Shown here: positions 1 through 64,000 of the stretch, piece after piece | How positions within the stretch are numbered: the first letter of the stretch is position 1 | How the letters are laid out: each line of letters starts with the position of its first letter | Source: a virus | Lineage: Duplodnaviria; Caudoviricetes | Length of the DNA stretch: 64,000 nt | IMG/VR virus record: IMGVR_UViG_3300030330_002422 | Location: 3,574-67,573 of that record | Strand: one strand, 5' to 3' | Notes under the pieces: generated by a model | Databases searched by the model: none | What the model was told of the DNA's origin: nothing | What the model saw: the letters and a program-made list of their open reading frames with translations, nothing else | Program-made: the position numbers and the translations under genes

Positions 1-3000
1 GTAAATCAACGCCCTTAGCTTGTTTAGAAACCTCATCTTCTGGTAATTGTATTTTAACTTTACCAGCATCAACTCTTTTGTTAAAAGTATCTATATACCT
101 CAATACATCTTTAGTAGTGTTCATGTCTAATAACGTAGAGTTTTCACCGTGAACAAGACCTCTAACTTTGTTTATCATAGATTTAAGCTCGTAAAGAACC
201 GACGTATTTTCGCTTTTTAACATACCAGCACGTTTCATAGTACCAATTAAAGTTAAAAGCTCTGACTGATCAGCTACTTTGTTTTTGTTTACTTTATTTC
301 TATATTGATCTACCCTTCTTCTAAACTGCTTGTACGTTTTTTTATCAATAACACCTTGGTCATACTGATCTTTTACATATCTTTGTAAACCATTAACAAT
401 ACGACTATGTGACTTAACTACTTTACCGTCTTTAACAAGACCTTTCGTCATATCGTACTGGTGCTGTAATTCATGGACAGATGCTTGAGTAGCGTCTGCT
501 CTTTGAACGTCATTACCAAGAAGAATATTAAGTCTTCTGTTATTTTCAAAGGTTAATATATCATCACCAACAAAAGTTGCGCTACCACCAATTTTAGTAG
601 GAACACCTAACGCATTTGTTGTTGTGGTAGCACCTTCTATTATACTTTGTTTTTGTTCTTCAGCTGTTATAACAGTACCATCTTCTAACTTTTTATCTTT
701 TAGTTTACCAGACTTAATAGCCTCATCTAAATACTTTTTAAGTTCAGCTAAATCTTGCTCCGAGTTATCATTGTCAAACTTAACAATTTTACCACCCAAA
801 CCTTTCACAAGTCCGTCATAATATGCTGCTCTACCATAATCTATAGAAGCGTCGACAGCTCTCGTATCTTCAATGTTGTTATCTTTAGCTGTTTTCTGTA
901 GTTTTCTATCGCGCTGTTGTTTTGGCTTAGCTAATATAGCTTCTTTTTCATCGTTCAACTCTTTATACTCATCAAGCAGTTTTTGGCGCTCTCTTTTTAT
1001 AGCGTCGTTATTAGCACTAACAGCACCTAGTTCTTGAGCTTGTCGAAATATCTGTAATCTTTTTCTTTGGTTTTCAAATAAATTTACTATGTCAGCATCT
1101 TCGAGGTTGGTAGCTTCCATAAAGTTAGCAACGTCTGTAACACCAGCTTCGTTTAATATTTCTAAACGTCTTTTCTTTAAAAGATCTGCGTCTTTTTTAC
1201 TCAATCGACCACCGTCAGCGCTAACGTTAAAACCTTCTTTTAATATATAATCAAGTTCTATAAACTCAGCTGTTAATTCTCTAAACTTTTCTCTTTGTTC
1301 TTTTGTTTGTAATGTGCTTCTAAGAGAGTTTCTAACAGCTCTAGACACGTTAGGACCACCTATAGCTAAAGAACTAATAGCAACATTTGCTACAAAGTCA
1401 GGATCTAAACCTTCTATAAGGCTTTTATCGTCTTTTAAAACCATTATGTCCATAAAGTTGTGACCAAGCAGTGTAGCACTTTCTTCGAGAACCTCTGTTC
1501 CCATTGGTTTTAACACGTAGTTTTTAGTACCTTTTATAGCGTTTCTAAAAGAAACCCCTCCTGTTATTTTAGAAGTTTGAAATAAATCATCGATAACACG
1601 CATTGTACCAAGAGTTTCAGCAGCGGTGGCTATACCACCGTATGTTAAACTCATAAAAGCTCTTTCTGTTTGTGTGTAGTTTAAAGCTCTTTTATTTCTT
1701 TCTATTTCTTTTTGTATTTCAAGTCTTTGATCTTCAGACATTTTAAGCCTTATCTTACCATCTTCTGGAATACCAGTTCTAGTTTCTGGTATAGCGTCGT
1801 CTTGTTCTAAAATGTTTTCAAGATACTCTATGGTTTCAGCAGCATTTTTTTGCATTATCTCCATTTCAGAAAGCTTAGCACCGCCTTCTGCTGTAAAAAA
1901 CGTTCCTTGTAAAGCTCTCTTTGCGTATTTTTGTAATGGTTTCGATGTTAATTTCTTAGCAATACCAGCGTATGTTAAGGCCGTACCTACACTAAAACTA
2001 TTGTTACCAACAACTTGCGATAAAAAATCACCCCAGTTTCCTGAATCTACATCAGCAAGCTTTATATCTACAGGTAATTGCGCTTGCTTTTTTTGTTTAA
2101 CACTTTCTGCGTAATCAATATGAGAAACGTAAGATTCTTTTAAATAATCTGATACCACACTTTCTGGACTAACTTGATCAGCTATCAAAGCAGCTCCACC
2201 TTTTACAAAAAGACCCATGTCACCTAGTATAGCGTCTTCAAAAGCAAGACCTATTCTGTAGCCAAAAGAATAACTTTTATCCAACGCTTCTAAAGCCACT
2301 GTCATATTGTTAAATTTTACGGCTTTTTGGTGTTGTATTTTTATTCTGTTTTGTAATTCGTTTGTTTGATTTAAAACTTTTCTTCTTTGTTCTATATCAA
2401 TACTCTCATCGTCTAAATAAGCACTAAGATCATTGTTGGGTATGTTTAAACTTTCAATATATTTTTTATAGTTTTCTATATCGCCGTTTAAAACGTTTCT
2501 ACTGTTTTCTAAGTATTTATACTGAAGCTCTACAGCTTCTTTAGCTATGGCTTTTTTTGTTTCTACTTTTCCTTTTTCAGACAAATCAGTTACATACCCC
2601 ATTTCGCTAACACCACCACTACCTGGCGTCGCATCAACAGCGTACGCTTCTGCTTTTTCTTGAATACTAGCGTAATCATCTAAGAAGTCGCCTGAATAAT
2701 ATTCTTGTACGTCCTCATCTATTTCTATAGCACTAACAAAACCTTTGTCAATTAAATTTTTGTTATTACCCACGTAGTCCTGCGTGTTAAACGTAACAGC
2801 TTCAGGTTTGTGTTTCTTTTCTAATTGATGTATACTAGCTAAAATATTAGTGTATGGGTTTGCACCTTCGCCTTCATAGGCTTTTTCAAGGTTTTTTACT
2901 TCTTGTATATCTATATCTAAATTGTTATCAAGATATTTTTTATATAGATTAAATTTTTCTTCACCCCACGTTTCTAATAAATACTCGTCTCTTCTTTCTT

Positions 3001-3490
3001 GATCTCTACGGTTGATGTCCTCTATAACTGGTTGCATGCTAGTCATACCTAAAGTAGAAGTATTGTCACTAACAAGAGGGTTAAATTCAGGGTGATATGA
3101 TGTTGATCCAGCTGGATATTGATACGGCATGTCTGGTACAGCTTCTTTTTCGTCGTAATTAAAAAACTCGTTCAACACAGTTTTTCTTAATCTAGAGTCT
3201 TTTTCAAAAGTTGTGTTATTGTTTATAGCATTTATGCTACGCTCAATATCTTCTCCGCTTTGTGGATTTTCTATAACAGTTGATTCCGGAGGATCAAACT
3301 CTATCACGGGTAAACCCGAAGAACCACTTTCCGAACCTGACCCCGTAACGTTTGACTCCGCCGTTGGGGTCTCTGTCGAGGAGTCTTCTTGCTTTCCCTG
3401 CTTGTTGTAATTTTCTATTACTAACTTAATGTTTTCTTCTGGCTCACCAGCGTCTATCATTCGCTGTACTATAGTTTGTAAATCACTCAT
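1..3490 (-). CDS. giant virion/ejection protein, N-terminal >=1163 aa (runs off left edge); contains HExxH zincin-like motif
   Basis: Not in the ORF track because it has no stop. ATG at 3490 (MSDLQTIVQRMIDAGEPEENIKLVIENY). The frame was open in every segment I translated, including 1-900, where HELQH is at 475-461. It follows two internal virion protein genes. Confidence 0.8.
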   Translation of the reverse strand, partial: MSDLQTIVQRMIDAGEPEENIKLVIENYNKQGKQEDSSTETPTAESNVTGSGSESGSSGLPVIEFDPPESTVIENPQSGEDIERSINAINNNTTFEKDSRLRKTVLNEFFNYDEKEAVPDMPYQYPAGSTSYHPEFNPLVSDNTSTLGMTSMQPVIEDINRRDQERRDEYLLETWGEEKFNLYKKYLDNNLDIDIQEVKNLEKAYEGEGANPYTNILASIHQLEKKHKPEAVTFNTQDYVGNNKNLIDKGFVSAIEIDEDVQEYYSGDFLDDYASIQEKAEAYAVDATPGSGGVSEMGYVTDLSEKGKVETKKAIAKEAVELQYKYLENSRNVLNGDIENYKKYIESLNIPNNDLSAYLDDESIDIEQRRKVLNQTNELQNRIKIQHQKAVKFNNMTVALEALDKSYSFGYRIGLAFEDAILGDMGLFVKGGAALIADQVSPESVVSDYLKESYVSHIDYAESVKQKKQAQLPVDIKLADVDSGNWGDFLSQVVGNNSFSVGTALTYAGIAKKLTSKPLQKYAKRALQGTFFTAEGGAKLSEMEIMQKNAAETIEYLENILEQDDAIPETRTGIPEDGKIRLKMSEDQRLEIQKEIERNKRALNYTQTERAFMSLTYGGIATAAETLGTMRVIDDLFQTSKITGGVSFRNAIKGTKNYVLKPMGTEVLEESATLLGHNFMDIMVLKDDKSLIEGLDPDFVANVAISSLAIGGPNVSRAVRNSLRSTLQTKEQREKFRELTAEFIELDYILKEGFNVSADGGRLSKKDADLLKKRRLEILNEAGVTDVANFMEATNLEDADIVNLFENQRKRLQIFRQAQELGAVSANNDAIKRERQKLLDEYKELNDEKEAILAKPKQQRDRKLQKTAKDNNIEDTRAVDASIDYGRAAYYDGLVKGLGGKIVKFDNDNSEQDLAELKKYLDEAIKSGKLKDKKLEDGTVITAEEQKQSIIEGATTTTNALGVPTKIGGSATFVGDDILTFENNRRLNILLGNDVQRADATQASVHELQHQYDMTKGLVKDGKVVKSHSRIVNGLQRYVKDQYDQGVIDKKTYKQFRRRVDQYRNKVNKNKVADQSELLTLIGTMKRAGMLKSENTSVLYELKSMINKVRGLVHGENSTLLDMNTTKDVLRYIDTFNKRVDAGKVKIQLPEDEVSKQAKGVDL

Positions 3491-54921: not shown

Positions 54922-54946
54922 AAAAGGGGCGAAAGCCCCTTTTTTT
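54922..54946. terminator. bidirectional rho-independent terminator
   Basis: AAAAGGGGC-GAAA-GCCCCTTTTTTT between the converging gene arms. Confidence 0.9.
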
Positions 54947-55415
54947 ATTTCATTTCCTCGTGAATATAAGCGGTTCTACCAAACTCTTTTTTAGCTATAG
55001 TTAGCTTTTTTCTATTTGGCCTATGTGTAACGTAACTTACGTGAACCCAATTAGGATTTTCATTATCACCAAACTCCCATATTAACTGATCAAAGTCTAA
55101 ATGATCTTTTATAAAATGATACATTTCAGCATTGGTCATTCTACCAAACGTATCATCAATATCCATAGCTTGACCTTTCATGTGTTGAGAGTATTTACTT
55201 CCACCAATAGCTGTGTTAACTGGCTCGCCTCTAAAAAAACTATTTATTTTTATTGGCCCGCCAACATAAGCTCTTAATGGTTCAAATATATTTTCAGCAA
55301 CTTCTTTCATACATTTTAATTGCTCTTCATTTGGTGTGTTGTCTAAGCCTTTTCTTTCAGCTGTTCTGCTATACACACCTTCTTTATAACTAACGTGTTT
55401 ACTTATTCTTTCCAT
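54945..55415 (-). CDS. endolysin, peptidase M15A family
   Basis: INSFFR..N..IGGSKYSQHMKGQAMDI..FDQLIWEF..WVHVS. Confidence 0.88.
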   Translation of the reverse strand: MERISKHVSYKEGVYSRTAERKGLDNTPNEEQLKCMKEVAENIFEPLRAYVGGPIKINSFFRGEPVNTAIGGSKYSQHMKGQAMDIDDTFGRMTNAEMYHFIKDHLDFDQLIWEFGDNENPNWVHVSYVTHRPNRKKLTIAKKEFGRTAYIHEEMK

Positions 55416-55419
55416 AATT

Positions 55420-55818
55420 TTAAAATGTTATTACTATACTAACCGATGCATCGCCAACTGAACCATCTCTTTCAAGAGTGAACTGTAAGCCTTTTTCAGA
55501 TGGGTTTATAGGTATATCATCACTGTCTAACTTTAACGCAGCTCCAACAGGTATTTTTACTTTAGTATATAATTGTATTACAGTAGAAGGAATTGCTACC
55601 GCTACACTAATGAAACAACTAACAGTGTCAGAGGTGTTTGCTATAACCACGCTAGAAGGTTGTTGAGCTGTTGCAATAGCTTGAGTAGTAGAACTAGCTG
55701 TTGATACATTAGCGTGTACATAATTTTTTATAACACCAGTTATGTTTTTATTGGTTGTTTTCTCTTTTATTGAAGGTGGTATATACCTTCTTCTTGAAAC
55801 TATACTTTTTTTAGGCAT
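55420..55818 (-). CDS. putative structural protein
   Basis: 132 aa, beta-rich, in the tail-fibre block. Confidence 0.45.
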   Translation of the reverse strand: MPKKSIVSRRRYIPPSIKEKTTNKNITGVIKNYVHANVSTASSTTQAIATAQQPSSVVIANTSDTVSCFISVAVAIPSTVIQLYTKVKIPVGAALKLDSDDIPINPSEKGLQFTLERDGSVGDASVSIVITF

Positions 55819-55828
55819 ATTGTTTTTT

Positions 55829-57121
55829 TTATGGTATTAAAGTTTTTAATACTATTGTGAATGATCCCCATAGTAAACCGTTACTATTACTCATGGCCTC
55901 ATCAAGACCAACGGCAGGAAACAACAAATCTCCTTGTGCTAAATCAGTATTTAAACCTGATGTTTCTAACTTTAAAAATCTATTCTTTCTATTACCAGTT
56001 GAGGTATCATATTTGTCTATTGCTACACAAGTAGCTGTAACATCAGTGTTGTTACTATCAGAAGGTTCTGCAGCCCTAAACAAACCTACAACAGGTCTAG
56101 CAGTGTTAGGTGTTGTATTGTTTGTTCTACAGTTACCATAAAAACCGTCTAGCTTACAAGCTTTCGGTATAACAAAAGCAGATGGTTGATCTAAATAATC
56201 TATTTCTATTGTTGAAGACCCAACACTAGAAGCGGCTGGAGTATGACTAGCTGGTTCAGGAGATCCGCCAGTTGTGTGTGAGTTGTTCCACAAATAGTAT
56301 TCAGGTCCATTTTGACTAGGTGTATGCCAAGCTTCAGATGTACAACCATTAACTTTAAATGAAAAATGTAAATATTGGTAGCTATATCTAGCGTCAACGT
56401 GTGATTTTAAACCAGCGGGCGTTACCGCTCTAGCGGTATCAGTACCCGTATCAGCTTCGCTTGTTGTAGCTAGCTCAACAATACCTTTGTTACTATCACT
56501 AGCGTCTTCACCCGCTACAGTTATAGTCGTATCAGCATTAGTTACATCTATACCCTCACCACCTAAAACCTCAAAAGTAATATTACCAGAAGAACCTATA
56601 CAGTTAGCATCACCGGTATCTGTAGTAAACTTAACAGCTGTTATATCACCTGTATTGCTAGTAAATCCAGAATCGTTATTTAAGGAGCTTATGTTTATGC
56701 TGCCTAATGATGTAACGCCTGTCCCTCCATTTGCTACAGGTAAAGTTCCCGTTACATCAGCTGCTAAGTCAATAGCATTTCTAGTTATTTCTTGCCCTGA
56801 TAAAGTTATATAATCTAAACTTCCAGCTAATGTTACGTTAGTTGAGTTATCTGTACCAGCAGCGTCTACACCTAAAGAAGTTCTAGCTGCCGCCGCTGTG
56901 TTCGCGTTTGTACCCCCGTTAGCTATTGGTAAAACACCAGTTACGTCGCTGGTTAAATCTGTTGTACCGCCACCACCTACAGTGTTCTTTACTATTTTGT
57001 TGTTTGAGTCTAAACCTAAATTGGAACCGCTAGCAATAGTACCGGTTTCAATATCTTCTAAATAAACGTCGCTTCTAAACCTAGATATTAACTGCCATAT
57101 ATGTTGGCCTATCCATTTCAT
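55829..57121 (-). CDS. tail fibre protein
   Basis: Repeats DVTG(V/T)LP(I/V)ANGGT and KGIVELATTSEADTGTDTARAVTPAGLK are typical fibre motifs. Confidence 0.8.
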   Translation of the reverse strand: MKWIGQHIWQLISRFRSDVYLEDIETGTIASGSNLGLDSNNKIVKNTVGGGGTTDLTSDVTGVLPIANGGTNANTAAAARTSLGVDAAGTDNSTNVTLAGSLDYITLSGQEITRNAIDLAADVTGTLPVANGGTGVTSLGSINISSLNNDSGFTSNTGDITAVKFTTDTGDANCIGSSGNITFEVLGGEGIDVTNADTTITVAGEDASDSNKGIVELATTSEADTGTDTARAVTPAGLKSHVDARYSYQYLHFSFKVNGCTSEAWHTPSQNGPEYYLWNNSHTTGGSPEPASHTPAASSVGSSTIEIDYLDQPSAFVIPKACKLDGFYGNCRTNNTTPNTARPVVGLFRAAEPSDSNNTDVTATCVAIDKYDTSTGNRKNRFLKLETSGLNTDLAQGDLLFPAVGLDEAMSNSNGLLWGSFTIVLKTLIP

Positions 57122-57124
57122 TTA

Positions 57125-57490
57125 TTACGACTTAGTCCAGTAACCAAATTCTAATACACACGCAGAAGTGTTGGCTGTAGCTTCTAAACCAACAGCACCT
57201 TTAACAGGTAAGAAAGCCCACTCTGTAGGACCCAAATCCATAACAGCTGTACCATCATCTAATTTTACAGTTATAATATTAGACGTATCTACGTTTTTTA
57301 AATAAACGTAAGTTATAGAAGCGTTGTCAGCTGTAGTTAACACATTGTATTGTCCAGAAGTAGCAACTGAGACTCTAGAAATATTTACCTGTGGGTTTGT
57401 TACAGATAAAGCATCTGTATAAGTTAAGTCTAAAGCGTTACTACTAGCGTCAGTGCTAGTTAGCACAATTTTAGCATTTAATGTAGCCAT
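57125..57490 (-). CDS. putative structural protein
   Basis: 121 aa, beta-rich. Confidence 0.45.
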   Translation of the reverse strand: MATLNAKIVLTSTDASSNALDLTYTDALSVTNPQVNISRVSVATSGQYNVLTTADNASITYVYLKNVDTSNIITVKLDDGTAVMDLGPTEWAFLPVKGAVGLEATANTSACVLEFGYWTKS

Positions 57491-57495
57491 AGTTT

Positions 57496-59688
57496 TTAAT
57501 TTTTAATTATCGTTTTATTTATTATTTTATCTTCGTAATTTATACGTAACATATACACCCCAGAACTCATTTTAGATACATCTAAGACATTTACGTTCTT
57601 TTTAGATATAATTACATCTCCGATATAGTTAATTACGTCTATATCAACGTTTTTACTAATGTTGATTTTACTGTTAGTTGGGTTAGGATATACAGAAAGA
57701 GAGTTGTAGTCTAATCTTGAAACAGGTTGAGGACCTGTCCAACCCTCGTAACAATAGTTGTAAGTTAGTTGGCATATATTATCCCACTCATTATCGCAAC
57801 AATAAGCATCAACATCTATTACCCAAGCATAACAAGGATCGTTCAACCAGTATGGTATACTGTCACCTGTTACACAGCCAGCGCTGTACAAGCAAGACTC
57901 TGGATTATCTATGTTTGCGAGTTCGTTATAGTTGTAAGCATTTTGATCCATACACCCTTCAACCACCGCAACACACGATCCATTATCTGTATTGGCTTCT
58001 GGATTGTAATTAATAGCAGTAGAATCGGTACAGCCATAAATATAAGGTATGCAACTAAAATCTTCTGTATTGGCTTGCGGATTATAGTTAAGCATGCTAG
58101 GGTCGGTGCAACCAAAGATAAATGGTACACAGGAATTATTGTCAACATTTGCTAAGGGATTGAAATTAAACATAGTACTATCCATGCAACCATAAACAAA
58201 AGGCTCACAAGAACCATTGTCTATGTTCGCTGTAGGATTATAATTAAACATAGTAGCATCAGTACAACCATATACAATTGCTATACACGAACTATCATCA
58301 ACATTTGCGAGAGCGTTATAGTTAAAAGCGTTTGGATCTGTACAGCCTGGTATCGGTAGTATACAAGAGTTATCATCAACGTTTGCTAAAGTATCGTAGT
58401 TTAAAGCTATAGGATTTGTGCAACCTTCAACAATCGCGATACACGTGTCATTAACATTTGCATTTGGATTATAGTTAAACGCTAAAGGGTTCATACAACC
58501 ATAAACAACAGCAATACAAGAGTTAGGTATTTCCACATTAGCGTTTGGGTCATAGTTTAAAGCTGTGCTATCCATACAACCTAAAACAACCAATGTAACA
58601 CAACTACCATCGTCATAATCAGCTATTGTATCATACTCTAAATAAAGTGGGTTCATACACCCAGGGTTGTAATAACAACTACCATCGTCTGTGTTAGCTA
58701 AAGTATCATAGTTTATAGCCGCAGTATCTATACAACCAAATATTTTTTCTACACAAGTATTACCGCAGTAAGGTTCTCCTATAATAGGAAAAAATGGTGG
58801 TATAGGATTTACAAATCCACCTTCAATATCTATAGCGACATAATCTTCTGAGTACAAACTATAACCACACTGTACAGCTGTAAAGTCTGATTGCTGTGTA
58901 ATTTCAAACACCGCTCTAACAGGGTAACCAGCTGCTAGATTTATAAAAAACGTAGTGTCAAAACCATCTATTAAGGTATAAGTTCCAAGATCTTGATAGT
59001 TAAAAGGTGGTATTAAACTAGTTGCTTGTGATATCTTTAAGCTAGATCCAGCCCAACCATTACCAGCTAAATCTGTTAGTTCTAACTCGTGCATACAGCT
59101 ATCAATGTTAATATCTGTATTAGCTGAGTCTATATAATTATAAGCTAGTGAGTCTGTGCAGCCATATATTTTAGAAATAAAACACATACCCGTGTCTAGC
59201 GTAGCAGCAGGATTAAACTCTACATAGCTCGTGTCCATACACCCAAAAACCGGTGGTGGAGGTGGACAACCAGATGTATATATTGTGTCAAATATTTGAT
59301 AACCAAAATTAGCAACAGGTAGTTCCCATATAGTATCGCCACACTGTTCTATATACACAGAGCCATCGTTACCGCCCCACAAACTACCAGCAATACCATC
59401 TCCATACAAATCATTTATAACAATGTAAAAGCTATCGATAGGCGCACAAGCAGAAGCGTATTGTGGTTCATAATCAATTATATTAGTATAAGGCCCACCG
59501 CTTATGAGAGTGTCTCCGCTAAAATCTACAATATACCAAGACGTTTCTTCTGGATATTGATCTGGGTTTATAGTAATATTTAAGCTCCATGTACTAGGTG
59601 GACATTGTCCAAATGCCGTGCTAATTGAAAAAACTAAAAACATTAATATAATATATATATAACTTGATATGTCTTTTTTTACTTCCAT
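57496..59688 (-). CDS. secreted Cys-repeat protein with Sec signal peptide and type IX secretion (T9SS) C-terminal sorting domain
   Basis: Signal KK-YIYIILMFLVFSIS-TAFG/Q; 13 GC(M/T/I)(D/N)...NY...A..D..SC repeats; C-terminus LSVYPNPTNSKINI..LDVSKMSSGVYMLRI..KTIIKN. Confidence 0.85.
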   Translation of the reverse strand: MEVKKDISSYIYIILMFLVFSISTAFGQCPPSTWSLNITINPDQYPEETSWYIVDFSGDTLISGGPYTNIIDYEPQYASACAPIDSFYIVINDLYGDGIAGSLWGGNDGSVYIEQCGDTIWELPVANFGYQIFDTIYTSGCPPPPPVFGCMDTSYVEFNPAATLDTGMCFISKIYGCTDSLAYNYIDSANTDINIDSCMHELELTDLAGNGWAGSSLKISQATSLIPPFNYQDLGTYTLIDGFDTTFFINLAAGYPVRAVFEITQQSDFTAVQCGYSLYSEDYVAIDIEGGFVNPIPPFFPIIGEPYCGNTCVEKIFGCIDTAAINYDTLANTDDGSCYYNPGCMNPLYLEYDTIADYDDGSCVTLVVLGCMDSTALNYDPNANVEIPNSCIAVVYGCMNPLAFNYNPNANVNDTCIAIVEGCTNPIALNYDTLANVDDNSCILPIPGCTDPNAFNYNALANVDDSSCIAIVYGCTDATMFNYNPTANIDNGSCEPFVYGCMDSTMFNFNPLANVDNNSCVPFIFGCTDPSMLNYNPQANTEDFSCIPYIYGCTDSTAINYNPEANTDNGSCVAVVEGCMDQNAYNYNELANIDNPESCLYSAGCVTGDSIPYWLNDPCYAWVIDVDAYCCDNEWDNICQLTYNYCYEGWTGPQPVSRLDYNSLSVYPNPTNSKINISKNVDIDVINYIGDVIISKKNVNVLDVSKMSSGVYMLRINYEDKIINKTIIKN

Positions 59689-59954
59689 TCTTCTTTTCGT
59701 AATTCGTTTGTAATTTGCTCGTGTGTTAATATTCTTTTATCTTTAACAAAATCAGGTTTAGTAGCAATAGATATTATAGCTTTTGTTTTGTCTTTATTAT
59801 ATCTAAGGCTTTTGTCGCTGTTTTCGTTTATTAAATTAAAATCTAAATGTTTTAAATATGGTTTAGCCCAACTAGCTATAGGCTTTTTCCAATTCCACTT
59901 AACGTTTATTATTACGTAAAACGCTCTTGTTCTTTTGTTGTTTACTCCTTGCAT
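59679..59954 (-). CDS. small tail-associated protein
   Basis: LDFNLINENSDKSLRYNKDKTK..P.F..LTHEQI..EEW pattern, a type seen next to LamG genes in marine phages. Confidence 0.45.
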   Translation of the reverse strand: MQGVNNKRTRAFYVIINVKWNWKKPIASWAKPYLKHLDFNLINENSDKSLRYNKDKTKAIISIATKPDFVKDKRILTHEQITNELRKEEWK

Positions 59955-60760
59955 TATGTACTTGGTGTATCTGATGAAGATTTAGCTCCGTTTTGTAACC
60001 TAATAGCATTACCACCCTCGTCTGGGTTTTTTTTATCTGGAACAGTTACGTTAGGTACAGTTCCAGTCATGCTTTCTGGAAGATACAAAGCTGTAACAAA
60101 ATTACTTCCTAAATAATAATTCGTATTGGTGTTAAAATTAAACTGGTTTTGAGCGTAGTATATTTGCTTTATAGCAGTCTCTGGTAGGTAAGAATTAAAA
60201 AAACAAGTATCACCAATCAAACAAGTATGATGGCTTTGAAATGTTTCACCCCAACCAGAACTACCATCAAGCTCAGCGCCAAACACTATTCTGCTAAAAG
60301 CTGTGCCTTGCGTCCAGTTAGTGGCTGGAACAGATACAGGGCCATTATTAGCCTTGCTTCCGTTTATATAAAGCTCACCCGACCAATTATTACCATCTAT
60401 GTAACCTATTTGGACGTGAACGTTATACCAAACACCATAATCAATAGCAGTACCATCTAGAGTAGTGTAATTATTTACTGGCACGTCAAAATCAAGCTGT
60501 AGCTTGCTAGAACTGTTTAACGATACCTTTATCCAATAATTTTCCTCAGTATCTGAAACTTGAATAACAGTACCAGGGGTTGCGTTTTTATCTTTATTGT
60601 ACCAAAAGTTAAACGCAATACCACGAGCATCAGTAGCAGGTCTCAATGTTTCGTGAAAGGCTACAATACCATTATCATTTACACCATCAAAGATCATGCT
60701 TAATTTATTACCCATTATTCTTTGTGGCATGGGCGGCATACATCTACCTAATCCTAACAT
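59954..60760 (-). CDS. LamG/concanavalin A-like lectin domain protein
   Basis: SMIFDGVND..IAFNFWY..GVWYNVHV..ELYING..IVFGA..IGDTCFFN. Confidence 0.75.
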   Translation of the reverse strand: MLGLGRCMPPMPQRIMGNKLSMIFDGVNDNGIVAFHETLRPATDARGIAFNFWYNKDKNATPGTVIQVSDTEENYWIKVSLNSSSKLQLDFDVPVNNYTTLDGTAIDYGVWYNVHVQIGYIDGNNWSGELYINGSKANNGPVSVPATNWTQGTAFSRIVFGAELDGSSGWGETFQSHHTCLIGDTCFFNSYLPETAIKQIYYAQNQFNFNTNTNYYLGSNFVTALYLPESMTGTVPNVTVPDKKNPDEGGNAIRLQNGAKSSSDTPST

Positions 60761-60761
60761 A

Positions 60762-61091
60762 TTAAAAATCGCTTAATATTATTTCGCTAATAGCTTCTTG
60801 CACTTCTTTTTTTGTTGCCACCATTTTAAAAGATAAATCTGCTTGAAACCTAGCAACTTCTTCACCATCTTTAAATATTATTATAGTAGGTATAACAGCG
60901 ATTTTATATTTACTCTGTGCTTTAACGTCTTTGGCAACGTCTATATATTTTACATTTTCAACATCTGAAAGCTTTGTAACCCAACTAACTTTGTTAGCAG
61001 AGTTCCATTCAGCATTAAAGCTTTTTATTGTTATTTGTGAAAAACTATTTAAACAAAAAAACAATAAAATTGTTGTAATAAATTTACTCAT
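60762..61091 (-). CDS. exported thioredoxin-fold protein lacking CxxC
   Basis: Signal peptide ..LLFFCLNSFS/Q; SFNAEWNSAN replaces WCxxC; YIDV..KYKIAVIPTIIIFKDGEEVARF (cis-Pro loop). Confidence 0.75.
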   Translation of the reverse strand: MSKFITTILLFFCLNSFSQITIKSFNAEWNSANKVSWVTKLSDVENVKYIDVAKDVKAQSKYKIAVIPTIIIFKDGEEVARFQADLSFKMVATKKEVQEAISEIILSDF

Positions 61092-61369
61092 TATTGGTAT
61101 ATTTTTTGTTCAATTTTTTCTAATGTAGCTTTTATTTCAGTTACATCTTCTTGTGTGTTCATGATAGTGTTACGTATCATTTGATCTTTCATATCAAACT
61201 CCATACGTGTTACTTCTGGATCAGGGGCTACAGGCAGTTCTTTTGCCTCTGCAATATCTGCTTGAAGTGTAAACCACATACCAGTCATCGTTACTAATAC
61301 CACACCTAGTGAAATTATAGTCTCTAGGCTTAATTTTACCTTTGTTGCTTTACTTATTTCTGTTGCCAT
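61091..61369 (-). CDS. single-pass membrane protein with coiled coil
   Basis: TM IISLGVVLVTMTGMWFTL; C-terminal heptads; TAATG coupled to the thioredoxin-fold gene. Confidence 0.6.
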   Translation of the reverse strand: MATEISKATKVKLSLETIISLGVVLVTMTGMWFTLQADIAEAKELPVAPDPEVTRMEFDMKDQMIRNTIMNTQEDVTEIKATLEKIEQKIYQ

Positions 61370-61387
61370 TTTATTACTATTTATACA

Positions 61388-62437
61388 TTAAAAGATTACA
61401 TAATTAATACCACACTTAAAGTCATACCACTCTCTGTTCCAGTACTTATTATATTTACCTTCTATGAACATTCCTAAATGTTTATTTATTTTGGTTCCTA
61501 CTATTAAACCACCTGAATAATCATACCACTGACCATCTACATAGTTGTGATAACTAAACTCACCACCATCATCGTAGTGCCAAGGCATAAAATTAGCCCA
61601 ACTATGAGCCCAAAACGTTTTTGTATAGTGGTAAAAATCAAAACCAACAACCACAGATTGTTGCATTTTATCGTCTAATTCATTTCTTTTTCTTTCAGTA
61701 TAATCAGAAAGTACTTGTGGTATAACTACCGCCTCCCAAACTTCAGGGCTATTAGCCACTAAATAACCGTTTGGATCATAATATTCACTCTCAAATACAT
61801 CAATGTTGTAACCTTCTTGTATTGCTAAGTATGTATAATGTATATCTCCATTGCTTAGCTTCCACTCTTCAAGAGGATCGTAACCATAAGGCTCTGATAA
61901 CCTTTGTACAACACCAGCATTAAAAGATAGCTTACTGTTTACTTTATACCTTAACCTTTGTGACGTTTCAAAATATTTTATATCAGCAAAACCATCTTGT
62001 AGATATTCACCTTTTAAAATATAATTGTTAGCAGCATATCTTAAAAAGTGGTGTTGATCAAGATACTCTACACCCTCTTGTCTTTTCATGTCAACTTGGA
62101 ATAAGTATTCTAAACCTTTTGTTTTACCAACATTAGCAGCGTCACTGTAATTAGACTCTGTACCATCGTAAAACGTATTAGCTCTATTTTCGTAACCAAA
62201 CCTAGCTATTTTACGTATACCCATTGTTAGGTTGTAGTCATAAGGTGTTTTTATAGTAGTTGTTGTTAAGCCGTTTGTTACAGAAAACACATCAACATCA
62301 GATATAGATGTACCTCCGTTAGCAGCTACGTAAAACGTAGAAAACTTTAATGGTTTAAAATTTTGAGAGCAACATTTTTTAGGAGCCGAACAAGCTACTA
62401 AAATTACTAAAATAATTATTGTTAAAAATTTCTTCAT
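61388..62437 (-). CDS. putative outer-membrane beta-barrel protein with signal peptide/lipobox
   Basis: MKKFLTIIILVILVAC; many alternating aromatic/hydrophobic strands (YNLTMGIR, YLFQVDM, LSFNAGV, HLGMFIEGKY); ends FKCGINYVIF, a beta-signal-like terminus. Confidence 0.65.
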   Translation of the reverse strand: MKKFLTIIILVILVACSAPKKCCSQNFKPLKFSTFYVAANGGTSISDVDVFSVTNGLTTTTIKTPYDYNLTMGIRKIARFGYENRANTFYDGTESNYSDAANVGKTKGLEYLFQVDMKRQEGVEYLDQHHFLRYAANNYILKGEYLQDGFADIKYFETSQRLRYKVNSKLSFNAGVVQRLSEPYGYDPLEEWKLSNGDIHYTYLAIQEGYNIDVFESEYYDPNGYLVANSPEVWEAVVIPQVLSDYTERKRNELDDKMQQSVVVGFDFYHYTKTFWAHSWANFMPWHYDDGGEFSYHNYVDGQWYDYSGGLIVGTKINKHLGMFIEGKYNKYWNREWYDFKCGINYVIF

Positions 62438-62442
62438 ATTTA

Positions 62443-64000
62443 TTATCTATTACGTCTTTTTCTTACATCTCTTCTTCTTGGTGCAGGAGTCGATGGTTCC
62501 TTTCTTCTTGACCTTTGGTTTTTAAAATCAGGTTCACCATAACTCTTCTTTTTCTTCTTTTTCTTTTCTTTTATATCTTCTTTTATTTGTTCTATTTTTT
62601 CGTTTTTAAGACCAAGGTTCCACTTGCTCCAACCACCAAACATTAAAGCTCTTTGCATAGCTGTATGTTGACTATCTAGTGCGTCTCTAACATTCACGGT
62701 TTTGTTGTACAACCTGTTAAGAGGTACGTTTGTAATAGCCTCAATGTAGCTTGTGGTTGCTGACCACATAGGATTATCGATGTCAAAAGTGCTCATTTCA
62801 TCAATAACCTTTTTATTATAGTTTAATGTTTTTTCAGCATTAACTATTTTTCTAGCCTTGATACCAAGTGGAGGTGAAACATTTAACATCTCCATTAAAA
62901 CAGCACTTTCGTCCTTGTTGTAACCCTTATCTCTTTGCTCATGCCATTTTATAGCCATGTTTTTTAAAGTAGCAACAGCCGCACCCCAAACACCAGCACC
63001 TCTTAAAACAGAGTCAATACTACCGCTTATCATACGTTCTTTCTTTTTTAAGAACTGTTCGTCATCTTCGTCGTCATCAAACATAACTGCAAACAAAGCT
63101 GATTGCAAAGCATAGAACACTAAGTTTTGTATAACAAAATAATAAGCTATTCTAGACAAGTTTGATAAATCACTTTGTAACTGCGTAGTATTACCAGGTG
63201 TTATTCTTCTATTTTTAATATCTAAAAATGCTTTTTTACCTAACCTATTAAACTGTGAGGTTACGTTTTGGAAAGCGAGTATAACCTTACCAAGAGGTGA
63301 AGCTTGTTGTTGCGATACCATGTCAGGTCTTGCAGACTGCTGAGTTGATTCGGCTAATATAACAAAATCAGTCCAAGCTCTTTCCTCAGCTTGTTTTTGA
63401 CTTAACCCTTGTTTTAAATAAGTGTTAACTCTGTTTCTAAAAAACGAAGCACCACCCGTAGCTATAGCTATATTATCACCTATTTGTGTCGGTAAAAAAC
63501 CTATTTGCAATAATTTTTTTATTACAGCTTGAGCTGGGTTTTTAGCGTTTCTAACAGACGCTGCTAGTTCAGCACCGTTGACATCTGTCATTATACCACC
63601 TCTTCTTTGTTTCATGAAGTCTGAGTTAAATATATAAGCCCAGTCTTTCCAATATTGATCTTGATTAGCAAAAGCTTTAGCAGCTGCTAGTATGTTGTTG
63701 TCAGCAAAGTTTATAAAGTTAACCATAGACATTTGCTGTAAAACGGCAGAACGTATGTTAAAGAACATTGTCGATGCAACAGATCCGTTTAAGTAATTTA
63801 AAAACTTGTTTACTAAAGCGTTCGAACCACTAGGCCTGTTTTTACCAGTCTTAGTTCTATAAAGAATATCTTTTATAGCTTCGACAACCTCTGCCCCGTA
63901 AGCAGCTTCTATTTTGTTTAAATTTTCTTTTGAAAATATAATGTCAGCATTTTCAAAAAACTCTTCAAAAAATTCTGCTCTACCAACTCTACCGGTAGCG
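62443..64000 (-). CDS. C-terminal >=519 aa of a giant virion/ejection protein (enters from right edge)
   Basis: Frame is open from 63999 (ATGRVGRAEFFEEF...YLNGSVASTMFFNIRSAVLQ) to the stop at 62443; the ORF-track start at 63768 is internal. Confidence 0.8.
   Translation of the reverse strand, partial: ATGRVGRAEFFEEFFENADIIFSKENLNKIEAAYGAEVVEAIKDILYRTKTGKNRPSGSNALVNKFLNYLNGSVASTMFFNIRSAVLQQMSMVNFINFADNNILAAAKAFANQDQYWKDWAYIFNSDFMKQRRGGIMTDVNGAELAASVRNAKNPAQAVIKKLLQIGFLPTQIGDNIAIATGGASFFRNRVNTYLKQGLSQKQAEERAWTDFVILAESTQQSARPDMVSQQQASPLGKVILAFQNVTSQFNRLGKKAFLDIKNRRITPGNTTQLQSDLSNLSRIAYYFVIQNLVFYALQSALFAVMFDDDEDDEQFLKKKERMISGSIDSVLRGAGVWGAAVATLKNMAIKWHEQRDKGYNKDESAVLMEMLNVSPPLGIKARKIVNAEKTLNYNKKVIDEMSTFDIDNPMWSATTSYIEAITNVPLNRLYNKTVNVRDALDSQHTAMQRALMFGGWSKWNLGLKNEKIEQIKEDIKEKKKKKKKSYGEPDFKNQRSRRKEPSTPAPRRRDVRKRRNR

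Follow-up and report, generated by a model that had tools for sequence, protein, structure and literature searches.

Flavobacteriia are the main marine degraders of algal polysaccharides, and their type IX secretion system (T9SS) puts adhesins and enzymes on the cell surface. Among phage envelope proteins, T5 Llp, phi80 and N15 Cor and lambda Lom are encoded beside receptor-binding or tail-fibre genes and travel along with these. Both Llp and Cor block the receptor, which protects the progeny and excludes rivals. These proteins are small lipoproteins or an 8-strand barrel and reach the outer membrane via Lol or Bam. To our knowledge, none of the three uses the T9SS and none is a stalked protein of 700 aa.

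Phage genes with a T9SS sorting domain have been described before. Bellas et al. (2020, Nat Commun, PMC7468147) reported 'Cryophage' genes with a T9SS type A sorting domain and proposed that the host T9SS is hijacked and the proteins are brought on or outside the cell, possibly for superinfection exclusion or competition. The Cryophage cargo comprises an endoglucanase, a GH39 enzyme and a PA14 protein, encoded in hypervariable islands of a glacier phage (PMC7468147). In gut phages, de Jonge et al. (2019, Viruses, PMC6949934) found ORFs with T9SS sorting domains next to crAss-BACON ORFs. The concept of a phage T9SS cargo is therefore not new. Of the interpretation given in the initial annotation of our locus, the Sec and T9SS type A features, the lytic phage and the position among tail-fibre genes stand, while its novelty was overstated.

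Similar to the Cryophage genes, the gene analysed here encodes a phage-borne product with a T9SS type A sorting domain. In contrast to the Cryophage cargo, this product presents a conserved, putative binding head on a stalk, is encoded in a four-gene cassette and occurs in several marine phage lineages. With the gut phages it shares the setting in uncultured Bacteroidota phages and the position of T9SS-domain ORFs near structural genes, one of the gut ORFs being fused to carbohydrate-binding repeats. The gut phages differ in their origin and their BACON repeats, and PMC6949934 reports neither conserved envelope partners nor tag swapping. Like the genes of Llp and Cor, the cargo gene is linked to a tail-fibre gene. 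Its product has 730 aa, however, and is not a small outer-membrane lipoprotein. In sequence and fold the cargo is unrelated to Llp, Cor and Lom, and the likeness would be one of functional analogy.

The cellular type A cargo proteins NucA, FspA and RemA of F. johnsoniae (PDB 8glk, 8glj, 8gl6) and RgpB of P. gingivalis share the signal with Gln at +1 and the Ig-like C-terminal domain (CTD) with the phage cargo; between the CTDs of cargo and NucA the identity is 27% at an rmsd of 2.4 Å. The phage cargo differs from cellular type A cargo in being part of the late operon of a lytic phage and in its linkage to three envelope genes. It is also shorter, with 730 aa compared to 1000–2800 aa for the marine cellular homologues.

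Export tags and passenger of the cargo

The phage record is that of a complete marine podophage of 67,573 bp (67.6 kb), and the window, the whole stretch of 64,000 nucleotides analysed here, comprises record bases 3574–67573. No tyrosine integrase, serine recombinase or resolvase was found across the entire 67,573-bp record. This supports a lytic phage and agrees with the initial view that the cargo is not a case of lysogenic conversion. Hosts of the terminase relatives are Flavobacterium, Cellulophaga, Tenacibaculum and Maribacter (Flavobacteriaceae), and it is solely from these that we deduce a probable Flavobacteria-type host. Megablast of the region against GenBank phages matched a tRNA-Arg gene only. 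The features of the locus are collected in Table 1.

Table 1. Features of the cargo gene and its surroundings (positions in the window)
Feature	Position	Strand	Basis
Cargo ORF P0001, predicted T9SS type A cargo	57496..59688	minus	730 aa, intact
Predicted Sec/SPase I signal peptide, residues 1-27, TAFG|Q (Bacteroidota Q-rule)	59608..59688	minus	inspection; hydrophobic core; modelled helix
Head domain 1, beta-sandwich, residues 28-140	59269..59607	minus	strands of the AF2 model, residues 33-137
PPPPP linker with two Cys repeats, residues 141-198	59095..59268	minus	sequence, repeat enumeration
Head domain 2, beta-sandwich, residues 199-310	58759..59094	minus	strands of the AF2 model, residues 197-304
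Stalk, 11 tandem two-Cys repeats of ~26 aa, residues 318-599	57892..58737	minus	regex enumeration
Small helical Cys knot, CC..WD..C motif, residues 600-655	57724..57891	minus	AF2 model, sequence
T9SS type A C-terminal sorting domain, residues 661-730	57499..57708	minus	PF18962, TIGR04183, model
g268 (268 aa) and g91 (91 aa), between g109 and cargo	59679..60760	minus	phage-specific insertion
g109, predicted exported thioredoxin fold, WNSAN replaces CxxC	60762..61091	minus	Pfam, TIGR01068
g92, N-terminal transmembrane helix and short tail	61091..61369	minus	sequences
g349, predicted exported (lipobox LVAC) outer-membrane beta-barrel, C-terminal Phe	61388..62437	minus	AF2
C-terminal part of giant protein ahead of the cassette	62443..63999	minus	match to relatives
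Conserved 121-aa protein, 430-aa tail-fibre-like protein, 132-aa protein, Peptidase_M15 endolysin	54945..57490	minus	PHROG, PF08291

The cargo ORF exists as annotated, is intact and is read from the minus strand. Its N-terminal Sec signal was identified by inspection and has the cleavage context TAFG|QCPP, with the end already noted in the initial annotation. Its h-region averages 2.2 on the Kyte-Doolittle scale, and residues 7–25 are modelled as a helix. There is no lipobox ahead of the first Cys of the cargo, and cleavage is predicted at G|Q. Among the cargo homologues the identity of the signal peptide is just 25%; nonetheless, 176 of 182 satisfy a strict simple rule for a signal followed by Gln at +1. 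The retention of Gln at +1 behind a divergent signal agrees with the Bacteroidetes Q-rule, which places Gln at +1 after signal cleavage (PMC5837995).

At the other end, the assignment of a type A CTD holds against both profiles proposed for its check, with 39.7 bits for PF18962 (cut-off 27, residues 666–728 of 730) and 31.4 bits for TIGR04183 (cut-off 23). A six-frame search of the phage record gave 44.1 bits. Among the NCBIfam models type A alone matches, and a type B CTD was not found on the cargo. The CTD is modelled as an Ig-like beta-sandwich with pLDDT 83–91 (residues 666–729), compared to the modest confidence of the AF2 model of the entire cargo (mean pLDDT 68, pTM 0.28), for which fold-search matches are mostly due to the CTD. 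Foldseek aligns the modelled CTD with 8glk_D over 75 columns (TM 0.76 normalised to the target, rmsd 2.4 Å), and phmmer relates the two sequences at E 0.003. With VIA, Z-scores of 7.8–8.4 are obtained for the CTDs of FspA, NucA, RemA, RemZ, RgpB and mirolase, with 65–68 residues aligned at an rmsd of 2.0–2.3 Å. The modelled CTD thus resembles the F. johnsoniae NucA, FspA and RemA CTDs that were solved within the SprA-PorV translocon. A tblastn search of GenBank phages with the CTD alone returned nothing credible.

All sequence and fold features of a Sec and T9SS type A cargo are therefore present, which supports this assignment. With both host export tags on the protein, the infected cell very probably displays it on or outside its surface, and the predicted export is well supported in silico.

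The passenger between the tags holds every one of the 39 Cys of the cargo and is extremely acidic, with 81 D+E against 5 K+R. No enzyme domain is recognisable in the cargo, and it finds no match in PHROGs, hence none to structural proteins. The domain containing PDQYPEETSW..INDLYGDG is indeed a beta-sandwich at residues 33–137 and carries a Gly/Asp-rich loop, DLYGDG..GSLWGGNDGS. It matches the Ca-dependent carbohydrate-binding module 2xhh_A weakly (Z 7.1, rmsd 3.6 Å, 95 residues), and the head also matches a PLAT domain (Z 6.6); both matches are too weak to name the fold family. The likeness of the head to a carbohydrate-binding module is this one middling match to 2xhh_A (Z 7.1). The second domain was initially taken as partial. 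A second beta-sandwich is present, but it is complete (residues 197–304, pLDDT about 77–81).

Exactly 13 repeats of the form GCxD..NY..C were counted, as had been stated, two at residues 149–198 and eleven in tandem at 318–599 with a period of ~26 aa. The annotated motif DAYCCDNEWDNIC was found at residues 627–639, within a small helical Cys knot at 618–647. Its CC..WD..C pattern is shared by signal-peptide proteins from MAGs of Hydrogenedentota, Planctomycetota and Myxococcales. The full cargo, searched by tblastn against GenBank phages, matched with its Cys repeat only; the hits are Synechococcus phage S-CAM3 and one marine virus. The Synechococcus phage gene with this repeat is annotated 'virion structural protein', and the repeat is also present in phage proteins of 1450–1630 aa that carry neither signal peptide nor CTD. 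The repeat by itself is thus no proof of export.

A cellular counterpart is a 1589-aa protein on a 617-kb contig of an uncultured marine Flavobacteriales genome (G128:C1), whose head-like module is 29% identical to that of the phage (E 2e-22) and which also has Cys repeats, a type A CTD and a signal peptide with Gln at +1. In addition to the tags, this marine protein therefore shares the head-like module and the Cys repeats with the cargo. Giant surface proteins of cellular Flavobacteriales contain counterparts of the head, the repeats and the CTD alike, which bears out the flavobacterial character ascribed to the head from the start.

Conservation of the head and exchange of the C-terminal tag

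Marine metagenomes yielded more than 100 homologues of the cargo at 50–79% identity, and a homologue is present on at least 93 viral contigs of IMG/VR. Numbers of this size show that the features of the cargo are not a chance pattern. More than 130 distinct homologues have an intact ORF. Conservation is distributed unevenly along the protein. Mean identity is 80% for head domain 1 and 87% for head domain 2 and amounts to 66% for the stalk and 37% for the CTD. The high conservation of the head, with many invariant residues, indicates purifying selection. The number of stalk repeats varies between 8 and 20.

The homologues carry as C-terminal tag either the type A CTD or a short tail (DLLGR..IYDDGTVEKK), and at least seven exchanges of one for the other are observed among them. 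The short tail is found in 34 of 132 classified homologues, about a quarter. It is unrecognised by PF18962, TIGR04183 and the other NCBIfam models, and its hhalign comparison with the type A CTD profile, made in view of a possible origin by truncation of such a CTD, is not significant (probability 5%, E 0.008). In marine Flavobacteriales genomes, which have the head and the repeats in common with the phage as well, the short tail terminates dozens of cellular proteins, next to 18–52 type A CTD proteins per such genome. The natural swaps of CTD and short tail represent a ready test of the short tail as a candidate sorting signal. Both the swappable tag and the conserved four-gene envelope cassette are absent from the initial annotation.

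The envelope cassette within the late operon

The cargo is accompanied by g349 in 79 of 91 loci, by g109 in 77 and by g92 in 76, and export signals are present on all three partners. Phage lineages with the cassette include some whose TerL is unrelated or merely 25% identical. Homologues of the 121-aa (g121) and 430-aa (g430) proteins flank it in many loci, unrelated lineages included. Neither PF18962 nor the g349 barrel is present in the five GenBank terminase relatives searched, namely Manatee Spring podovirus, Elemovirus, Cellulophaga phi18:3 and phi38:1 and Tenacibaculum Gundel_1 (TerL 34–64% identical, four of them cultured phages). There is thus no cultured model with the module among these five. 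In the cassette of our phage, g268 and g91 are inserted. A homologue of g268 is found in none of the other loci and one of g91 in two loci only, and neither protein matches a family.

The AF2 model of g349 (pTM 0.71) contains ~14 strands and an inserted helical domain. Its top fold matches are generic barrels of 12–14 strands such as porins and autotransporters, and many members of the family have a lipobox. Neither Pfam nor NCBIfam yields a match for g349 up to E 1. The idea that g349 is a phage-borne PorV, PorP/SprF or PorQ is unsupported, since no profile matches and PorV (6h3i_F) ranks 21 in the fold search with Z 8.0. Matches in the ESM Atlas are generic barrel clusters, and a 'Phage_OMP' cluster among them was unconfirmed by a Pfam scan. 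A cognate barrel of the PorP/SprF family, as in the SprB/SprF pairing, was not found beside the cargo. As a working analogy to SprB/SprF, the g349 barrel may nonetheless serve as the anchor of the cargo.

The tail of g92 is probably helical and predicted to be periplasmic. For g109 we find a weak match to Pfam Thioredoxin (E 1e-4) and one to TIGR01068 (E 2e-6). Its signal peptide ends ..FS|Q, and signal and Gln at +1 are kept in 64 of 66 homologues. PHROGs gave no match for g349, for the neighbours of g92 or for g121.

The initial annotation placed the cargo among tail-fibre genes, and late tail-fibre and lysis genes are indeed found around it. The tail-fibre-like 430-aa gene, assigned by its PHROG match, lies two genes downstream of the cargo. 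The endolysin (phrog_894, PF08291, Peptidase_M15) follows ~2 kb downstream in the same operon, which ends after it with a bidirectional terminator at 54922–54943. In 17 other loci an endolysin is likewise located a few kb downstream of the cassette. On its upstream side, the start of the cargo overlaps the preceding ORF. The gene for the giant protein ahead of the cassette is split by the ends of the linear record, and the 441-aa ORF in the window corresponds to the C-terminus of proteins of 2785–3155 aa in relatives. A scan for sigma-70 promoters found 36 compared to 35.6 expected from shuffles and is thus uninformative on Bacteroidota promoters.

Proposed role and alternatives

The best explanation of the locus, which we hold to be moderately probable, is a T9SS stalk protein that is exported late and alters the surface of the infected cell together with three envelope partners. 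In silico we observe how the protein is built and tagged, how it is conserved, its synteny and its host-like origin. The cargo would be expressed late and taken across the inner membrane by Sec and signal peptidase I, leaving an N-terminal Gln. Its disulfides would be made in the periplasm, and the host T9SS would then read the type A CTD and let the cargo cross the outer membrane. The protein would represent a phage-borne, shortened form of the giant surface proteins of the host. Its head of two beta-sandwiches is the putative conserved binding part, with binding that is probably Ca2+-dependent, and the rigid acidic stalk with its 13 disulfide-bracketed repeats would keep the head away from the cell. 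The C-terminal tag would be an address only and could be freely exchanged. The cargo would work with g349 as outer-membrane barrel, g92 as single-pass protein of the inner membrane and g109 as redox-dead thioredoxin fold of the periplasm, and the four genes may form a mobile host-interface module that moves with tail-fibre genes.

From these features we infer export, surface retention, binding and purpose. The most likely purpose would be a changed binding by the surface of the infected cell and its debris, late in infection. A T9SS-dependent receptor could be masked, so that progeny and rival phages are not adsorbed, or the cell could be stuck to glycan particles or neighbouring cells. In F. 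psychrophilum, loss of gliding-motility genes brings about phage resistance (PMC9804748). Counting against the best explanation, the gene lies inside the late structural block, a module of such wide conservation could serve egress instead of surface masking, and about a quarter of the homologues end in the short tail that the T9SS models do not recognise.

If the module feeds the T9SS, marine phages would routinely rewrite the surface of the infected cell late in infection, with possible effects on competition among phages, the loss of progeny to debris, attachment to particles and the flow of carbon. The large family, on at least 93 IMG/VR contigs, offers a concrete handle, through expression of the head domain and a search for its ligand. 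A more far-reaching form of the proposal appears rather unlikely to us. Here the cassette would be a self-contained re-surfacing device, in which the barrel anchors or receives the stalk, the CxxC-less thioredoxin fold chaperones the 39-Cys passenger, the head masks a T9SS-dependent receptor and the short tail is an undescribed sorting signal of the T9SS or an equivalent system. If so, the masking head would protect progeny from adsorption to debris and exclude rival phages, and the short tail would sort dozens of proteins per streamlined marine Flavobacteriales genome.

Unlikely, in our estimate, is that the cargo is exported by Sec and T9SS and then released in soluble form like F. johnsoniae ChiA or NucA-type proteins, where it would coat glycans and particles or act as a decoy for phages or grazers. 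The export evidence is identical for this case, the sequence does not decide between anchoring and release, and an acidic, disulfide-rich passenger is expected of a stable extracellular protein. The layout of N-terminal head, middle stalk and C-terminal tag is, however, that of a surface-anchored adhesin. Variation of the stalk between 8 and 20 repeats makes most sense with one end fixed to the cell, and the co-inherited outer-membrane barrel suggests a membrane-bound partner.

Less likely again is an egress machinery, in which the cassette including the cargo would be a Bacteroidota-specific spanin substitute with g92 as inner-membrane and g349 as outer-membrane arm. The layout of g92, an N-terminal transmembrane helix followed by a probably helical, predicted periplasmic tail, is that of an i-spanin, and g349 as an outer-membrane protein has a lipobox in many members. 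An egress role is also in line with the co-transcription with the M15 endolysin and the proximity of an endolysin in the 17 other loci, and the conservation of the cassette resembles that of a life-cycle function. A two-component spanin (Rz/Rz1) was not found, however, as the outer-membrane neighbour of the i-spanin-like g92 is a 349-aa barrel of 12–14 strands and no small o-spanin lipoprotein. A T9SS-dependent head on a stalk, 730 aa in length, has no obvious role in membrane fusion, and the cassette adjoins tail-fibre genes also in unrelated lineages. In addition, the five GenBank relatives are without barrel and CTD protein, so that lysis by this type of virion does without the cassette.

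Virions commonly bear Ig-like domains, and the cargo could also be a virion part, such as a tail fibre or decoration, with its N-terminal hydrophobic stretch and Ig-like domain being structural and no sorting signals. The position of the gene between the giant tail-associated protein and the tail-fibre-like genes fits such a part, as does the presence of the Cys repeat in the cyanophage 'virion structural protein' and in some large phage proteins that lack export tags. We nevertheless consider a virion part very unlikely. An N-terminus of 25% identity retains a canonical signal with Gln at +1 in essentially all homologues, and the C-terminal domain has been replaced at least seven times by the other host-type tag. 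The three conserved neighbours are envelope-targeted as well, a protein with 39 Cys would not form disulfides in the cytoplasm, and PHROGs contain no structural-protein match.

Next to no credence is left for a functionless passenger, a recently captured fragment of a host surface protein: every module does have a Flavobacteriales cellular counterpart, but more than 130 distinct homologues retain an intact ORF, the 80–87% conserved head with its invariant residues indicates purifying selection, the G+C of the cargo gene is that of the remaining phage, and the synteny with the three partners is fixed across unrelated phage lineages.

Architecture and tags of the cargo

The cargo, the predicted Sec and T9SS substrate of this phage, is encoded by an intact reading frame where the initial annotation had placed it, with the qualification that it reads on the minus strand. 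Its Sec signal ending TAFG/Q (mean Kyte-Doolittle value of the hydrophobic core 2.2) and its type A C-terminal sorting domain (CTD) are both borne out, the latter by two family models above their cut-offs. The thirteen two-Cys repeats counted earlier are all present, two in the linker and eleven in the stalk; the second beta-sandwich domain, previously described as partial, turned out to be complete. All 39 Cys lie within the passenger, which carries 81 acidic versus 5 basic residues.

Features of the cargo and its locus. Residues refer to the cargo, other positions to the window; identities are means across homologues with the cargo of this phage as reference; co-occurrence was counted over 91 loci with a cargo homologue.
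Feature	Position	Strand	Mean identity	Loci	Description
Cargo ORF	57496-59688	minus			intact, 730 aa
Signal peptide	residues 1-27		25%		canonical Sec; basic n-region MEVKKD; cleavage context TAFG/QCPP
Head domain 1	residues 33-137		80%		beta-sandwich, from model
Linker	between head domains				PPPPP and two Cys repeats
Head domain 2	residues 197-304		87%		beta-sandwich, from model
Stalk	residues 318-599		66%		eleven tandem repeats, ~26 aa each; 8-20 per protein among homologues
Helical Cys knot	residues 618-647		60%		small; contains DAYCCDNEWDNIC
CTD	C-terminal end of cargo		37%		PF18962 39.7 bits (cut-off 27); TIGR04183 31.4 bits (cut-off 23)
g349				79/91	exported outer-membrane barrel
g109				77/91	exported thioredoxin fold, WNSAN instead of CxxC
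g92				76/91	N-terminal transmembrane helix and short tail, probably helical
Two extra genes	59679-60760	minus			268 aa and 91 aa, between g109 and cargo
g121	57125-57490	minus			conserved, starts MATLT..; follows cargo
Terminator hairpin	54922-54943				strong, bidirectional; 9-bp stem, 5 G-C pairs, T-runs both sides

The structural model of the cargo has modest overall confidence (pLDDT 68) and good confidence over the CTD (83-91). Among solved structures, the modelled CTD is matched best by its counterparts in F. johnsoniae NucA, FspA and RemA, which were captured in the SprA-PorV translocon, and in RgpB, mirolase, PorZ and HBP35. Foldseek aligns the CTD to 8glk_D with a target-normalised TM of 0.76, an rmsd of 2.4 Å and 27% identity, and phmmer also finds 8glk_D (E 0.003). 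VIA gives Z ~8 against solved CTDs over 65-68 residues at an rmsd of 2.0-2.3 Å.

In a protein search, more than 100 homologues with 50-79% identity came up, nearly all from marine metagenomes, and homologues are encoded on at least 93 IMG/VR contigs. Under a strict rule, 176 of 182 homologues have a signal peptide with Gln directly after it; the other six fail solely because the start is truncated or the -3 residue is unusual. Gln at +1 follows the Q-rule of Bacteroidetes signal peptidase I substrates (PMC5837995), which phage proteins from P. gingivalis prophages have also been seen to obey (PMC10367356). Conservation along the cargo is uneven, and we therefore consider the N-terminal head to be the working end. 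The stalk would set the reach of this head, and both ends of the protein would serve as address labels.

Two C-terminal ends occur among 132 distinct homologues: the type A CTD (98) and a short tail of ~38 aa (34; examples in L031, L006, L057, L072 and others) that is recognised by no Pfam or NCBIfam model. The pattern of the tail is ..KKL...TD.LGR......N..LFYIYDDGTVEKK.I, reading ..TDLLGR......N..LFYIYDDGTVEKK.I in the 34 phage homologues. It also stands at the end of ~30 ORFs of a single marine Flavobacteriales MAG, with several further examples in two more genomes (cellular loci L099-L106), always 2-4 residues before the stop. Because it ends many ORFs of genomes that also hold type A CTD proteins (18-52 each), the short tail is a cellular tag. 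Profile comparison between short tail and type A CTD was not significant, and the tail is a candidate for an undescribed sorting signal. On a FastTree phylogeny of the conserved head the tag state changes at least 7 times, a count that tree errors could somewhat inflate; with the labels shuffled, changes average 30 and never number fewer than 25.

Cellular relatives of the cargo

Of 301 sampled Flavobacteriales genomes, 126 contain homologues of the cargo head; many of the matches extend over the Cys repeats alone. A subset spans domain 1 through domain 2 with 31-39% identity in ORFs of 1000-2800 aa. One such example, a 1589-aa protein encoded among housekeeping genes on a 617-kb contig, combines a signal peptide ending NA/QC, Cys repeats and a type A CTD, and its head-like module is 29% identical to the cargo head (E 2e-22). 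With cellular counterparts for head, repeat and CTD, the gene carried by the phage is related to host T9SS surface proteins and shorter than they are. It matches the phage in G+C, so the capture was not recent.

Proteins with a signal peptide in MAGs of Hydrogenedentota, Planctomycetota and Myxococcales also contain the CC..WD..C knot. It recurs there as D.YCCD..WD..C (L010-L013), at times in tandem, and looks like an as yet unnamed extracellular mini-domain. The GCxD..NY..C repeat occurs in a few copies in large phage proteins of 1450-1630 aa that have neither signal peptide nor CTD, encoded upstream in L025, L028, L033, L034, L036, L070, L083 and L098, and in a Synechococcus phage S-CAM3 gene annotated 'virion structural protein'. 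This repeat is therefore not confined to exported proteins.

The phage and its envelope cassette

The source record (67,573 bp, CheckV 100% complete; the window is its bases 3574-67573) encodes a large terminase, portal, several virion proteins, an M15 endolysin, a tail-fibre-like protein and one tRNA-Arg within the window. Its terminase is closest to that of an uncultured podovirus in GenBank (64% identity), and the relatives there are lytic and infect Flavobacterium sp. BAL314 (Elemovirus), Cellulophaga, Tenacibaculum and Maribacter. Neither a tyrosine integrase nor a serine recombinase was found in the record, in agreement with the initial annotation. From these relatives and this absence, it is fair to read the record as a lytic phage whose host is of the Flavobacteriaceae type. 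The linear record begins and ends within a giant gene (62443-63999 and 2-3490, both minus). At the right end, a 518-aa open frame matches 2785-3155-aa proteins of relatives at their C-terminus; an ORF of more than 1163 aa running off the left end of the window is probably its N-terminal part. It follows that the genome either is circularly permuted or was cut open within this gene.

The cargo and the envelope trio g349, g92 and g109 form a cassette whose order is sometimes permuted with the four genes still together. It is usually preceded by a 2500-3155-aa protein, with g121 and tail-fibre-like genes nearby. g349 has Phe or Arg as its last residue and, at the other end, either a lipobox or a signal peptide with Gln at +1. 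It is modelled by AF2 (pTM 0.71) with ~14 strands and an inserted helical domain, and its fold matches are generic barrels. Signal peptide and Gln at +1 are present in 64 of 66 g109 homologues. Relatives of g349 occur in just 2 of 301 genomes: a 404-aa homologue of a Flavobacteriales genome (L110 9379-10593, G062:C35; 29% identity, E 8e-36), near prs, the ribosomal protein L25 gene and pth and like g349 without family match, and one on a phage contig binned into a MAG (G195:C32).

The 268-aa gene, annotated initially as LamG-like, and the 91-aa gene have no signal peptide and no family match; the former has no homologue in other loci, the latter in 2 only. At its start the cargo gene overlaps the 3' end of the 91-aa ORF, and its stop is followed 5 nt later by the start of the next gene. 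In 33 loci g121 borders the cassette, before or after it. This protein likewise lacks a signal peptide and family match; it is small and probably belongs to the virion or is associated with the fibre. The terminator separates the convergent ribonucleotide reductase and endolysin genes and ends the minus-strand unit of the cargo just past the endolysin, which makes the cargo a late gene. The cassette is absent from all five GenBank relatives searched, and cargo and trio are present in near-complete IMG/VR records of 80-119 kb (L052, L089, L078, L034, L083) whose terminase is just 25% identical or undetectable. We conclude that it is a mobile accessory module, passing from one phage lineage to another along with host-recognition genes.

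Proposed route and purpose

Established in silico are the tags and their conservation, the CTD fold, the host-like origin, the synteny and the late-operon position. In the proposed route, Sec export and cleavage would leave an N-terminal Gln, disulfides would form in the periplasm, the host T9SS would recognise the CTD, and a binding head on an acidic stalk would be displayed or released. As a kind, the phage-borne cargo gene is a real and well supported finding; the principle itself is not new. ORFs with T9SS sorting domains are known beside crAss-BACON ORFs in gut phages (PMC6949934) and from 'Cryophage' (PMC7468147); the cargo family, its envelope partners and tag swapping are described in neither of these papers.

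For the purpose, the weakest step, we favour altered binding by the infected cell and its debris, through receptor masking and exclusion or through adhesion. The gene travels with tail-fibre genes, as the T5 llp and cor genes do, and the head is strongly constrained while stalk length varies; both argue for this reading. So does the dependence of phage susceptibility on gliding-motility genes in Flavobacterium (PMC9804748). Release of the cargo as a soluble factor seems unlikely to us, and a role of the cassette in egress slightly more doubtful. That the cargo is a virion part is improbable; repeated exchange between host-type C-terminal tags would be expected of a sorting signal, not of a structural domain. 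Least credible is a functionless passenger gene.
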